Source: Bilabrum cf. latius (Eukaryota). Taken from it: 64,000 nucleotides of DNA. The DNA is taken from positions 682,001 through 746,000 of the forward strand of contig OZ237764.1 in the NCBI GenBank assembly GCA_965178125.1, read 5' to 3'. The notes below the pieces were generated by a model. It had not been told where the DNA came from and made no database searches. It saw nothing but the letters and a program-made list of their open reading frames with translations. Shown here in pieces: positions 5,135 to 12,537 of this stretch. The first letter of the stretch is position 1. Every line of letters starts with the position of its first letter. The position numbers and the translations under genes are program-made.

Positions 5135-6208
5135 ATGGATAAGATTCTAAAGCTAATAGGAATAGAACGAAATAGTAAAATACGAACTCTAATGGCTCCT
5201 CCAAAAAGACCGAAAGGACAAAATATGGGGCACCTTCCGGTCAGACCTGTCAATGTTAATGCCCAAGCAGACCTTTTATTCTTACCAGATGATAAGGGAT
5301 ATAAGTATGTCTTGTCATATGTTGATGAAAGTAGAATTGCCGATGCTGTAGCACTGAAGACTAAAAAGTCATCTGATGTGTTGAAAGCCTTCAAGAAGAT
5401 ATTCACCAGAACACCAGCACAAAGAAAAAAGCTAGGCATCAGAACTAAACTAGAACCTCCAGACCTCCTGAAAATTGATGATGGCTCAGAATTCAAAGGA
5501 GTTGTCAAGAAGTACTTTGAAGACAATGGAACATATTTAAGAGTAGGAAGAGTTGGAAGGTCAAAACAACAGGCACTAGCTGAATACTTGAATTACATCA
5601 TAGGGCGAACTGTTTATACCCTCCAGAATATCAATGAACTAGCAACCAATAAGCAAGACAAGAGTTGGACTTATATTTTACCAACAATTATCAAAGCATA
5701 TAATGAAACCAACAAGGACAAGAGACCAGACAAAACAGCTGATAACAAACCACCAATATGTCAAGGCAAGAGTTGTAATCTCTTGGAAGAAGGAGACCTT
5801 ATAAGAGTTCCATATGAGTATCCTCAAGACATCATTGGGAATAATAGACTCCACGGTAAGTTCAGGGCTGGAGACTTGAGATATAATCCTGAACCAAAGA
5901 AGATTGAGTTCATCATTCTGAAACCAAATGCCCCACCACTGTATAAAATAGAAGGAATCAACAATGCTGTCTATCATAAAGAGGAAATACAAAGAGTTGA
6001 TGACAAGGAATCAGATAACCGAAATAGTCAAACTGTTTTCATAGTTGAGAAACTTATAGGCAAGCGAAAAACCAAAGGCAGAGTTGAGTATCTCGTGAAA
6101 TGGAAAGGCTATCCAAAGTCTCAAGCTACTTGGGAACCTTATCAACAGTTAAGGGAAGATATAGGAGTTCAAGGAATCAATACACTAATCAAACAGATGA
6201 AATTATAA
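5135..6208 (+). CDS. Retroviral-type (rve) DDE integrase with C-terminal chromodomain (part A)
   Basis: QADLLFLP...KIDDGSEF...QQALAE (D,D,E); chromodomain FIVEKLIGKRKTKGRVEYLVKWKGYPKSQATWEP. ATG 5135, TAA stop. Confidence 0.9.
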   Translation: MDKILKLIGIERNSKIRTLMAPPKRPKGQNMGHLPVRPVNVNAQADLLFLPDDKGYKYVLSYVDESRIADAVALKTKKSSDVLKAFKKIFTRTPAQRKKLGIRTKLEPPDLLKIDDGSEFKGVVKKYFEDNGTYLRVGRVGRSKQQALAEYLNYIIGRTVYTLQNINELATNKQDKSWTYILPTIIKAYNETNKDKRPDKTADNKPPICQGKSCNLLEEGDLIRVPYEYPQDIIGNNRLHGKFRAGDLRYNPEPKKIEFIILKPNAPPLYKIEGINNAVYHKEEIQRVDDKESDNRNSQTVFIVEKLIGKRKTKGRVEYLVKWKGYPKSQATWEPYQQLREDIGVQGINTLIKQMKL

Positions 6209-6237
6209 TTAATAACGATACTACTAATTATAATCAT

Positions 6238-7311
6238 TTAAAGTAAGCTCAAAATGTACTGAATCATCATTCTATCTTGTTTTGTCATTGCTTTTCCACT
6301 TCCCTCAGTTCTTGTACCATATAATCCTGTTTTGGTGGGCTTCAATCTTCCTATAGGTTCATCATATGTGACTCCTCTAACCCAAGGACTGATTTCTGTT
6401 CCTCTTTCAATTTTATTTCTACCCAATGAGCCCTTTGGTCTAGTTCTTCCAGATAAATCTCTCAATGGTCTTTTAAGTGATGTTAAACCAGTTTGAGCAA
6501 ATACAGAACGAGGATAAGAACTCGTTTGTCCCTTGACAGATGAATCCCATTCTGGAGCAGACTGCATATCTTCCATAATCGTATCTAAAGCATCAGGTTT
6601 GCCTTTTCTAAGTCTAGCTTCTCTAGCTTCTCTTCTTCTTTTTATTTCTCTACTTTCTTTTGCTATCTGAGCCATATATTTTCTTTTGTCATCAAGAGTA
6701 AGATTTCGAAGAATTCGTTTTGTTTCACTTTCTTTAATAAGCCTTTTAAAGTCTTTCATAGCTTTTTTGTTTTTTGCTTCTTCAACTTTTTCTGGTAGTT
6801 CTTCAAGTGATGGGGTTCTTTCAGCCATAGCGGAATCAGGTCTTCTTATTGTGGATGGTCTTACACCACGAGGTGCCTCTGTCTCAGCTTGTCTTCTTGC
6901 TGCTGCTCTTCTGCCATATAGAGGTCTTCCTAACTCAGAAGCATCAGCAAACAAGTTTCTTTGCCTCCTTAATTCTTCCTCAAGTGTACCTGGTCGACTG
7001 GAACCTGTTCTTGTCCTTACTCCAGACATCGAAGGTCGTCTTGTTAAACTACGAGATGCTGCCATTCCTGTGGGTGGTCCTGAATATTGTGTTGCTGTTT
7101 CATCTCCCAATAAATATGCGATATCAGAGGCATCTTGTAAGTCTTTCCGTGAGCTTTTCATTCCTCCACTTGTTCTAGGACTTAGATTTTTCGTGATTAG
7201 GTTGATAAGTTTAGCTTTCTTTGCTTTAGAATATCCCTTAATGCTAAATGCTCTACAAATATCTCTTAAGTCATCACAGTTTAACTTTTTAAGTTTACTT
7301 TTCATAGTCAT
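6238..7311 (-). CDS. Basic putative virion core/DNA-binding protein with N-terminal Rho_N/HeH-like motif
   Basis: N-terminus KLKKLNCDDLRDICRAFSIKGYSKAKKAKLINLI is paralogous to that of 7330-9102; K/R-rich; xGG/GxG motifs. Confidence 0.55.
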   Translation of the reverse strand: MTMKSKLKKLNCDDLRDICRAFSIKGYSKAKKAKLINLITKNLSPRTSGGMKSSRKDLQDASDIAYLLGDETATQYSGPPTGMAASRSLTRRPSMSGVRTRTGSSRPGTLEEELRRQRNLFADASELGRPLYGRRAAARRQAETEAPRGVRPSTIRRPDSAMAERTPSLEELPEKVEEAKNKKAMKDFKRLIKESETKRILRNLTLDDKRKYMAQIAKESREIKRRREAREARLRKGKPDALDTIMEDMQSAPEWDSSVKGQTSSYPRSVFAQTGLTSLKRPLRDLSGRTRPKGSLGRNKIERGTEISPWVRGVTYDEPIGRLKPTKTGLYGTRTEGSGKAMTKQDRMMIQYILSLL

Positions 7312-7329
7312 TACATAGAGAGATATTTT

Positions 7330-9769: not shown

Positions 9770-11779
9770 GATGCCAGAGTGTACGCGCAACCTAGTCTCG
9801 TTAACAATCAGACATGGCAAGACCTGACAAAGCTGTGCCTGTGCGCGACCCTTGACCGGACTGACCGGGGCTGGGAAGAGCACGTGCACTGATGCTGGAC
9901 ACGACCACGAGCTGCTGCCCTGCGGCAACCAGGACGGCAAGGACGCCGTCGAATGCACGCAAGCAGCGCGCACGAGCACACAGCCTAAAGCAAAGGAAAT
10001 AGCCGAGTAAATAGTGCATAGTAACTCGCTAGATGGCACCTACTTTTCTCGTCCGCCTGCAGCAGACGACTCCGAGTTGGACGCATCAAACTTCCCAAAA
10101 CTGGCATTGCTCATCGGCAGAGCTGCATGAAGCCGGCTCGTGAACGAGAAAATAGCCGATTCAATCTTGGCTCTCGTCACGGCCTGACCAAACAGGGCAC
10201 GGGCCAGTTCTGCAGCGAAATCGCGGCCGCTAGCGTCCAAATGAAGCGCGTCAGCCTAGCAAAACCGCGGCATGAACGCGGATTGGCGAAAGATCGAGGT
10301 CAACGTTGCCAAGAAATCATCAGAAAACCAATTCTGCATTCGAATTGCAGCGATTGAAGGTGCAGAGGCCTCACGCTACAAAATCTCCACTGGTTGCGAG
10401 CGAACGACCGCGGAGTCCACTGCCGTGCCTGCGCCCGGTGAAACTGGGTCAATTGAAGACGCAGGCTGCGGTGAGGCAGAAGATGACACAGGAGGTTCAC
10501 GGGGTGGCTGATGAGCGGGTGTAGCGTCGACCGGTGGCGGGGATGAGTGCATCGAGGCTGCTAGTCGGTGCGAGAAGTACCATTGCAATTCCACGTGGGC
10601 GGAGAGGTGCGACAGCAGCTCTTCCTGGCGCAGAGTCGGAATGCGGTGCCACAGCGCAAACAGGCGTAGATGCAGAATTGTCGCTGGGTCGGCCGTTCCC
10701 CGCAGCGTCGTGGAGTGCAACACTGCCCGTTGGAGATCCCCAGGAAGGCGGCCCCAGACCGCGTCGAGCTAGCGGCTGGTGCCCGGAGTCACGCCGGGGG
10801 AGTCGTAAGCCGGAGACACACGAGGAAGAAGAAGCTGGGGGCCTGCCGGGCCCGTTGACCGTGATGCTGCACTGCTGAGCGCCTCCGCGAGCACTGTCGG
10901 ATCGCCGAAGTCCCGAGTGCCTGGCCTACCGGGGATCATGCCCGAGGCAGGTGGAGGTTGGTGCCGCGGGGGTGAAGACGTTGAGAAGTTGGGCTGGGCG
11001 CTGCGCTGGGTATCTGCTGCTGTCCCCGGGGGCCCTCGGTTCGGGGACTCGTGCAGGTGGGCCCGCCCGCCGCGCGCGAGCGGGGCCTGCCGCGTCGTCG
11101 AAGAGCCTGGCCGCGCCCGCAAGGGCGAAATTCCGCGGCTTGTCCTGGTGGCACTCTACGCCGCTCGGTCGCGTCCAGGTGAAGCATGGATGGCGGCGCC
11201 GAAGTCGAGGCGTCCTGGTGGCCGATGCTGTCCGCGAAGAGGAGCGGTCCGCCGGCCCGTCGGTCGTGAACTCAGGGACCATGGAGACTCGATTGAAGAA
11301 GGAGCCTCTGGAGATTGCTGAACAGGATGAAGATGTACTTGTCCTGCGAGTCGCTCAGGCTGTTGCCGTCGAGGAGAGCTCGGCGACGCCGGCAGAAGCA
11401 GCCGTGCACCGAGAGTCGTTAGCGTCCCATTTGACACGAACTTGGCGAGAGCGGTGCTCTTGACAGCATTAATGGACCGTGATGCCGTGAAGGACTGCTT
11501 TGATGAGTACCTGTCGAGCAAGTAGCACAGGAACCCCGCATCGTGTGCACGTTGAAGATCGGGATCGCGAGGTGCCATGGTGTCGCGCTGCACGTTGAGA
11601 CGAGCAATGAAATCCGAGAACACAGCATCATTCATACCATATCGAGTAGCTAAATCGGCCAACGTGACCGCAGGTTGGCCTACCGCGCGAGCGAACACTG
11701 CAGCTGCGGCGATCACCCTGGCGCTGCCTGCTGCCCCGCGCGCCGCCGGGTCGATCCGATGGCTACCGGCGCTGTTCAT
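9770..11779 (-). CDS. Gag-like ORF (~670 codons) running into the element's 3' terminus
   Basis: ORFs 11156-11779, 10769-11122, 10376-10723, 10040-10240 and 9713-10039 are one frame separated only by TAG (11156, 10769, 10376, 10256, 10040). Gag identity is inferred from position. Confidence 0.55.
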
Positions 11780-11981
11780 GTTAAATGAACGGAGCAGGAA
11801 CTTTCTTCAAAAATTACCCAATCTCCGCCCCTCTCCTGAACACAGAGAGGGTATGCGCGTCATCGCAAGCAATCCGTTGGCTTGGTCGCACCTTCCCGGT
11901 CGCAACTGCCATCGGAACCCAACGAGACGTTCACGCGCTCCCACTCTGGCATCAACACCGAACCCCATCCGGCGTTAGGAT
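9770..11981 (-). mobile_element. YR-retroelement derivative 1 (gag-like ORF only), 2.2 kb
   Basis: 5' 175 bp (11982-11808) and 3' 121 bp (9890-9770) match the ends of element 2 at 12363-12537 and 15651-15771. GAT/ATC core at both junctions. Confidence 0.85.
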
Positions 11982-12537
11982 CATAATCAGTATATCAAAG
12001 GATATATTTACAAGTTGTTTTCACCAAAGGCACCACAAAAAATTTATATTGGAAGCACCACCAATAGTTTGAAAGGTAGATTATATTCCCATATGGCAAA
12101 TTATGAGAACTATTTACAAAATCCAGAAGGTAAAGGTTGTTGCTCATCATATTCCATACTACAGCATACAGGAGAACCCGAAATAAGTTTAATTGAAGAA
12201 ATAGAACTGGATAAAACCAAAATCAGCTTTAGACTACCACTAGTCAAGAGAGAACGATACTACATAGAGAAATTTAAGCTAATGGAGAATATTGAATGTG
12301 TGAATAAACGAATTCCTTCCCGTAATCAAAAGGAATGGAAGGCGGAAAATAAAGAGCATCTTGATCCTAACGCCGGATGGGGTTCGGTGTTGATGCCAGA
12401 GTGGGAGCGCGTGAACGTCTCGTTGGGTTCCGATGGCGGTTGCGACCGGGAAGGTGCGACCAAGCCAACGGATTGCTTGCGATGACGCGCATACCCTCTC
12501 TGTGTTCAGGAGAGGGGCGGAGATTGGGTAATTTTTG

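Follow-up and report, generated by a model that had tools for sequence, protein, structure and literature searches.

Two patterns of TAG codon use between one pair of terminal repeats in an endogenous virophage element of Bilabrum cf. latius

Introduction

The stretch of DNA considered here, 64,000 nucleotides (nt) of contig OZ237764.1 in the Bilabrum cf. latius assembly GCA_965178125.1 (positions 682,001 to 746,000; referred to as the window, with positions counted from its first letter), contains an inserted element at about 3167-32294 that is bounded by terminal inverted repeats (TIRs) and holds two viral portions. The genes of the left, AT-rich portion (part A) have no TAG in frame, whereas every gene of the right portion (part B) contains TAG as a sense codon. 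The question raised by this locus is why two such patterns stand between a single pair of TIRs; a sequence-only reading had answered it with two codon strategies, A being code-neutral and B a code-locked specialist. The contrast in codon use is real and statistically sound, and it is independent of the junction between A and B. It is probably explained by history: a virophage arm that arrived recently, in the TAG-free state that is the default of its kind, would have been joined to a virophage that is long resident and code-locked.

Codon contrast between the two parts

Five frames were counted in part A (5135-6208, 9265-9705 and 11988-12361 on the plus strand; 6238-7311 and 7330-9102 on the minus strand). 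Their 1,574 sense codons include 40 CAA and 13 CAG for glutamine (Gln) and not one TAG, and the earlier description of these frames as lacking TAG in sense and stop positions and writing Gln with CAA or CAG only is confirmed. Four of four complete open reading frames (ORFs) end in TAA; the same had been claimed of the GIY-YIG frame, which has no stop of its own. The 13 frames of part B hold 4,276 sense codons with 90 CAA, 65 CAG and 60 TAG, end in TAA or TGA and, as had been read, contain TAG without exception (13/13). Two retroelement frames inside the element (1,536 sense codons; TAA and TGA stops) have 22 CAA, 59 CAG and 11 TAG, and six host stop-to-stop frames (about 4,690 sense codons; TGA stops) have 61 CAA, 134 CAG and 22 TAG. 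The greater AT-richness of A was also correctly noted, GC being 0.32-0.38 in its frames and 0.42-0.51 in those of B.

The absence of TAG from A is not what its Gln counts would lead one to expect, and the earlier reading holds on this point as well. The probability of finding no TAG among 53 Gln codons is 2.9e-8 at the TAG share of B (0.279), 1.2e-3 at the retroelement share (0.12) and about 4e-3 at the host share (22/217), and a Fisher test of TAG use in A and B gives p=4.6e-7. Position-specific base frequencies predict 15.8 TAG codons in A, which has none, and 70.4 in B, which has 60. As TAG is common in the other two frames of the A genes (44 and 39 occurrences), its absence is a property of the reading frame and not of the DNA; the claim that the left part avoids TAG entirely is good for the viral frames and not for the trinucleotide as such. 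Likewise, the interval 5135-12362 is TAG-free in its viral frames and not throughout, since it contains a retroelement frame of 688 codons with five TAG. A second copy of A shows no new TAG among 32 changed codons (17 synonymous, 15 not), in a comparison based on 38 differences out of 358 reported, of which 40 were listed. As a side observation, TAG makes up 28% of Gln-type codons in B, about 10% in the host frames and 12% in the retroelements; the higher share in B fits its lower GC, which favours TAG over CAG.

Meaning of TAG in the host

In host genes, TAG acts as a sense codon. A host LMBR1-like frame at 57683-59677 matches Pfam LMBR1 over residues 44-526 (E=5e-64), and its four TAG codons, at residues 103, 189, 323 and 439, all lie inside the match. 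ORFs of at least 150 codons cover 0.22 of part B when TAG is a stop and 1.43 when it is sense, in keeping with the earlier description of B as code-locked; part A stays fully open in the standard code. Within the A, B and retroelement frames, TAA and TGA are absent, and every stop is one of these two. The codon most probably specifies Gln, to judge from alignments with standard-code homologues: Gln stands opposite the TAG codons of B in 25 of 164 aligned cells (15%) and opposite its CAA and CAG codons in 68 of 352 (19%), against a background of 3.5%. The assignment is a likely one, lysine being the commonest residue opposite TAG (42 of 164 cells).

Two distinct virophages

Part B is a mavirus-type virophage. 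Its truncated major capsid protein (MCP) matches Sputnik_MCP_1st (E=2.8e-23) and its penton matches V18-19 (E=8e-13); the DNA_pol_B_2 and rve matches pass the Pfam cut-offs, and the ATPase has only weak AAA matches below them. The ATPase and protease match three virophage contigs (L003, L004 and L008) of a set described below. For B, IMG/VR yielded a single match of pPolB at 30% identity and none of the penton.

Part A is assigned to the virophages because of its integrase and its 590-residue (aa) protein, which have homologues in virophage contigs; both families are found in contigs that also bear penton, ATPase, protease and pPolB genes. The five A frames include no capsid or morphogenesis gene, the arm being cut off at 12362. 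It is not decayed, as four ORFs are open where base composition predicts about 83 in-frame stops.

The only protein that A and B have in common is the integrase (35% identity over 358 columns); no other pair matches. The motif TATAGTA occurs 14 times in the window, where 1.5 would be expected; all copies lie at 16943-30357, in part B, and none in A despite its greater AT content. Of 12 upstream stretches of part B examined, seven carry it 1-15 nt before the ATG; it resembles a promoter element of virophage or giant-virus type and seems specific to the B lineage. Two A genes have TATGTA abutting the ATG. Five public sequencing runs contain part A, no RNA data set being among them, and the contigs of four were compared. 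In run X1, part A has a summed contig depth of about 67, part B one of 190-350, the TIR one of about 700 and the retroelements one of 1,400-5,800. These are rough figures and not copy numbers, but the difference between A and B indicates that most B copies stand without A. In view of the distant integrases, the separate motifs and the unequal depths, the notion of two strategies between one pair of TIRs is better replaced by that of two virophages joined at retrotransposon insertions.

Standard-code relatives of part A

A profile search of IMG/VR with the type-A integrase family returned 11 virophage loci (L001-L011) at 31-40% identity. All are AT-rich (GC 0.23-0.41) with a standard-code ORF coverage of 0.72-0.94, and L003 is a clear virophage, with PrimPol-helicase, rve-chromo integrase, pPolB, a homologue of the 590-aa protein, ATPase, protease and penton. 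Among 116 non-overlapping ORFs of at least 120 codons in these loci, the stops are TAA in 98, TGA in 16 and TAG in two, TAG stops being absent from ten of the 11 loci. Against this background, four TAA stops in four genes have a probability of about 0.51. The default of such virophages is thus to lack TAG and to end genes in TAA, and no code-neutral strategy is needed for A. What was called code-neutral in A holds in the sense that its genes are translatable both under the standard code and with TAG as Gln; the strategy attached to it is superfluous. From these comparisons, part A appears to show the ordinary pattern of standard-code virophages, and part B the unusual one.

Nearer relatives are few. 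The best protein-database matches of the type-A integrase have 58-64% identity, and none above 64% was found in the protein, IMG/VR and JGI sets searched. IMG/VR yielded no close relative of the integrase or of the 590-aa protein, and JGI metagenomes queried with the 590-aa protein and P0113, its sole protein-database match, gave one relative at 26% identity.

Outline of the element and its retroelements

The element lies in host DNA with a GC of about 0.55-0.63, and GC and repeats divide its interior into five blocks (Table 1). The right TIR corresponds to the outer and inner parts of the left TIR taken together (3167-3670 and 4444-5101), with a sole mismatch of one base near the outer end. 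Both outer ends are directly flanked by GGCA, which is single in uninterrupted paralogues of the target near 45293 and 50457 of the same window; it is on this ground that the unit from TIR to TIR is taken as one integration site. The target-site duplication measures 4-7 bp, its exact length being ambiguous because the TIR starts with a run of C. The first 25 nt of part A (5102-5126) have no inverted counterpart in the window, and no separate type-A terminus was seen.

The two GC-rich pieces, which have common terminal repeats, are probably DIRS/Ngaro-like tyrosine-recombinase retrotransposons, an identity that derives in part from a recombinase match under the cut-off. Retroelement 2 has direct repeats at 12362-12515 and 15773-15926, an RVT_3 (RNase H-like) match of 25.7 bits against a cut-off of 21.6, and a Phage_integrase match (E=1.7e-4) of 21.9 bits under the cut-off of 27.1; Pfam gives no RVT_1 match. 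A 122-nt unit at 15651-15772 recurs inverted at 9769-9890, and there is no B2 copy after 15926. The flanks of retroelement 2 are not contiguous in either virus, with the GIY-YIG gene of A on the left and codon 335 of the B capsid gene on the right. High-copy short derivatives of the retroelement also exist, with joints from 12537 to 15643 through 26 other letters, which in run X4 have a depth of about 1,290. In one contig of 5,651 nt, the 688-codon frame and the reverse transcriptase (RT) frame have the same orientation; they are divergent in the window.

Contigs from the public runs bear on the individual joints. Contigs from runs X1 and X4 that match 5072-8626 without a single difference cover the junction of TIR and A. 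A joint from 9768 to 11984 (runs X1, X4 and X5) marks an A-type copy without retroelement piece 1, and in 8858-9768 an A variant has 62 differing positions out of 911 (about 7%). In run X2, a 4,451-nt contig departs at 12361 into 4,047 nt that are absent from 3001-23000 of the window, and another B copy has a different sequence before 15927.

Favoured explanation

On the explanation favoured here, one integration site would hold two mavirus-type virophage lineages between its TIRs. Part B would represent a multi-copy, long-resident lineage in which TAG stands at about its compositional expectation, a level that makes it unreadable under the standard code. Part A would be the left arm of another virophage, low in copy number and AT-rich, that has default standard-code coding and whose time in the host may have been too short for synonymous CAG-to-TAG changes to accumulate. 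As A-type genes are already translatable in a host with TAG as Gln, the reassignment would be no barrier to entry; it would block only exit, after TAG has built up. Three steps could have produced the present arrangement: A and B would have come into one locus, either because A integrated into the left part of B or through recombination; retrotransposons would then have inserted into both A and B; and recombination between two directly oriented retrotransposon copies would have deleted the right part of A together with the left part of B.

Several observations weigh against this account. Only 53 Gln codons and four complete type-A genes are available, with no type-A capsid or replication gene seen. 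A TAG-free state passively retained would give the counts found here just as active avoidance would. The closest integrase relatives, P0001 and P0002 (58%), both end at the same column before the chromodomain, and these ends could be TAG codons taken as stops by the gene caller; a search for the split C-terminal pieces returned two generic chromodomain fragments on other contigs and was uninformative. Part A is not brand new, as it carries two retroelement insertions, and runs under two organism labels contain both A and its variant with about 7% difference. The TIR passes directly into A without a type-A terminus, which simple nested integration does not explain. Finally, the links through the repeated TIR and through retroelement 2 rest on the assembly, and among the contigs listed none bridges 12361/12362 or 15926/15927.

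Alternative explanations

A and B could already have been one hybrid virophage before integration, the A arm deriving from another virophage and the TIRs being regenerated in replication. This is unlikely, though it deserves some weight: apart from the 773-nt insert, the 1,162-nt TIRs are identical but for one position, a single target-site duplication flanks the whole unit and the TIR abuts A directly, and recombinant or truncated endogenous virophages with regenerated TIRs are described for Cafeteria in passages of PMC8547959. However, the capsid gene of B is cut exactly at one end of a retroelement and the GIY-YIG gene of A at its other end, so that the rearrangement should have followed the insertion of the retroelement. 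A virus with half a capsid gene could not package itself, and A has about one-quarter of the depth of B, which means that other B copies lack A.

Type A may instead be kept TAG-free by selection, either as a generalist moving between codes or through a helper giant virus that restores termination at TAG. The absence of TAG where about 12-22 would be expected is compatible with this, as is the second, diverged A copy, whose visible differences add no TAG. P0113, the close relative of the 590-aa protein, is an unbroken ORF of 510 aa in another assembly, and the differing promoter-like motifs of A and B fit different helper viruses. Special selection is not required, however, since the same pattern is the default in ten of 11 standard-code relatives, and the divergence between the two A copies offers few chances of a CAG-to-TAG change when A has only 13 CAG. 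The IMG/VR and JGI searches gave no type-A copy from a standard-code host, and the element contains no tRNA or release-factor gene. Selection of this kind is therefore judged unlikely, and the wider idea, in which such selection makes the genetic code a niche axis separating two virophage lineages in one protist, is rather improbable.

It is also rather doubtful that the juxtaposition of A and B is an assembly artefact, arising from a switch inside the high-copy TIR or the 3.5-kb retrotransposon. The depths of these repeats in run X1 far exceed that of A, the run X2 contig leaves the GIY-YIG piece for other sequence, and the two ends of retroelement 2 are the positions at which bridging contigs are missing from the list. 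Set against this, the 64-kb window passes through several repeats without any N, which suggests repeat-spanning reads; the junction of TIR and A appears in contigs of two runs; and the left and right flanks form one target site. The codon contrast would in any case survive, being independent of the junction. Chance sampling in a genome with TAG as Gln is almost certainly not the reason for the absence of TAG from A, for although 53 Gln codons are a small sample, the probabilities at the B, retroelement and host rates and the 15.8 predicted TAG codons given above speak plainly against it.

Relation to known systems

The endogenous mavirus-like elements (EMALEs) of Cafeteria burkhardae, as presented in passages of Hackl et al. 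2021 (eLife, PMC8547959), are integrated virophages about 20 kb long, flanked by TIRs and equipped with rve integrase, pPolB, helicase and a morphogenesis module, and the present element resembles them in these respects. The same passages describe low-GC and mid-GC types with different integrases in one GC-rich host, GC-rich tyrosine-recombinase (Ngaro) retrotransposons inside virophages, and recombinant and truncated elements, all of which have their likeness here. Unlike the EMALEs, the host and its resident virophage read TAG as sense, a feature of which the main-text passages of that paper make no mention. The retroelement repeats also differ, as they do not cleanly follow the A1-ORFs-B1A2B2 scheme.

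Halocafeteria seosinensis offers a second parallel, with several virophage subtypes per genome that are nested in or chimeric with each other and host transposons, according to parts of Haro et al. (bioRxiv 2026, 10.64898/2026.07.28.741278). GC differences among its virophages and polinton-like viruses are taken in those parts as marks of recent as opposed to old arrival. That system differs in a host GC of 47% as compared with about 58-63% here, a gap on which Halocafeteria is rejected as the host of the present element, and in its transposons, which are MULE and LINE elements; the words 'codon', 'genetic code' and 'TAG' do not appear in the text. Part A itself is like L001-L011 in integrase family, AT-richness, absence of TAG sense codons and TAA stops, and like L003 and L004 in its 590-aa protein family; it is unlike them in its place within a TAG-sense host beside a recoded virophage.

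Totivirus-like elements in yeasts that read CUG as serine, mitoviruses and UGA, and crAss-like and Lak phages are cases of viruses faced with reassigned codons. They embody the same idea, in which the use or avoidance of a codon records or limits the association with a host; they are RNA viruses or phages, whereas here two virophage lineages are joined in one eukaryotic locus.

An ochre-suppressor tRNA in a virophage clade has been regarded as a possible sign of recoded hosts in the passages of PMC6905037 concerned. According to a 2026 catalogue (PMC13524828), every confirmed isolate of a giant virus is from a standard-code host; it also reports a single metagenomic giant virus genome in agreement with code 6. 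The open-access texts searched on virophages or polintons and code change contained no report of a virophage with a reassigned stop codon. The recoded virophage described here implies that giant viruses replicate in the TAG=Gln host. The locus may be regarded as a concrete natural case of stop-to-sense reassignment acting on eukaryotic viruses. Entry would be free, as AT-rich virophages that have no TAG sense codons and almost never a TAG stop could enter a TAG=Gln host unchanged; exit would be blocked, as a resident lineage that gains TAG up to compositional expectation could then not leave. The TAG load could be an internal gauge of the time for which a virophage lineage has lived with such a host.

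Features of the element and its surroundings

Table 1. Positions of repeats, blocks and genes within the element, in window coordinates.
Feature	Positions	Strand	Description
Left TIR, outer part	3167-3670	+	Pairs with 31791-32294; GGCA at 3166-3169
773-nt GC-rich insertion	3671-4443		In left TIR only; right TIR without copy; GC 0.56-0.70
Left TIR, inner part	4444-5101	+	Tandem repeats of 12/41/66/78 nt; stops abruptly 34 nt before ATG of part-A integrase
AT-rich block	5102-9768		GC about 0.36
Type-A integrase	5135-6208	+	357 aa; rve-type core and chromodomain; no TAG; TAA stop
Type-A 357-aa protein	6238-7311	-	Rho_N/SAP-like N-terminal head; no TAG; TAA stop
Type-A 590-aa conserved virophage protein	7330-9102	-	Rho_N-like head; no TAG; TAA stop
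Type-A DUF5824 protein	9265-9705	+	146 aa; PF19141 E=4e-6, 27.4 bits against cut-off 25; no TAG; TAA stop
Type-A GIY-YIG gene, start	9761-9768	+	ATG and 5 nt; in-frame continuation at 11984
GC-rich piece (putative retroelement piece 1)	9769-11983	-	GC about 0.6; 688-codon frame with 5 TAG; inside codon 3 of GIY-YIG gene; no Pfam match
AT-rich piece	11984-12361		378 nt; GC 0.33
Type-A GIY-YIG gene, body	11984-12361	+	No TAG; 3' end cut at 12362
GC-rich piece (putative retroelement 2, DIRS/Ngaro-like)	12362-15926	+	RT/RNase H frame 12862-15408 (6 TAG); recombinase frame 14607-15602
Block of intermediate GC	15927-31132		GC about 0.45
Type-B major capsid protein gene	15927-16933	-	Cut after codon 335; first jelly-roll domain only
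Rest of type B	17042-30349		Penton, cysteine protease, ATPase, 210-aa, 447-aa, three fibre-like paralogues, pPolB, D5-like helicase, integrase
Type-B rve integrase	29270-30349	-	rve at E=2e-10
Right TIR	31133-32294	-	1,162 nt, unbroken; GGCA at 32292-32295

The type-A integrase matches the Pfam chromodomain (E=7e-15); PF00665 was not reported at E<=0.01, although its relatives carry it. Residues D46, D115 and E150 are invariant across eight aligned sequences and presumably form a D,D35E triad. The heads of the 357-aa and 590-aa proteins are 57% identical, and that of the former matches Rho_N at E=3e-4, under the Pfam cut-off. The core of the 590-aa protein contains invariant His134 and Cys213 and is 84% identical to that of P0113. 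Its predicted structure has a mean pLDDT of 47 and is confident only at residues 80-245; it gave no PDB match at E<=0.001, and a weak resemblance to the PPPDE1 fold (probability 0.60, E 0.21, TM 0.45) may serve as a lead only. The GIY-YIG gene, which is split by the first retroelement piece, matches PF01541 (E=3.5e-6, 27.6 bits against a cut-off of 22.6) over profile positions 1-73 of 78, and an ATG-started frame at 12093-12485 passes into the second retroelement piece before its stop. PHROGs yielded nothing useful for the A proteins.

Further insertions are found in the element. The piece at 3671-4443 in the left TIR is a repeated element, with a contig depth of about 1,577 in run X1 against about 67 for part A, a summed depth about 20 times as great; variants with internal skips of 85-89 nt are present in the runs. 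A GC-rich insert of 595 nt (18633-19227) splits the protease gene of B; a joint from 18632 to 19228 reveals B copies without it, which occur in three runs with GCCC at the joint. The tandem B genes at 22833-25381 (391, 259 and 174 aa) have a common N-terminal motif, MS.SN.L..., and two of the three also share a C-terminal ...Y.CG. The genes appear to be paralogues that encode fibre or spike proteins.

The window as a whole contains no tRNA gene and no Rfam family. The virophage target belongs to a locally repeated host segment (3100-3166, 32295-34323, 44592-48294 and 49768-51168), and in the paralogous segments about 12 and 17 kb away the target is intact and near-identical proteins of 700-780 aa without a Pfam match are encoded. 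To the right of the element, a 107-nt repeat present three times (37800-38121) stands just upstream of a 5-kb satellite at 38155-43145, which consists of 44.6 copies of a 112-nt unit with 95% matches and a strong skew of A over T, and in which three open frames, each longer than 1,200 codons, overlap.

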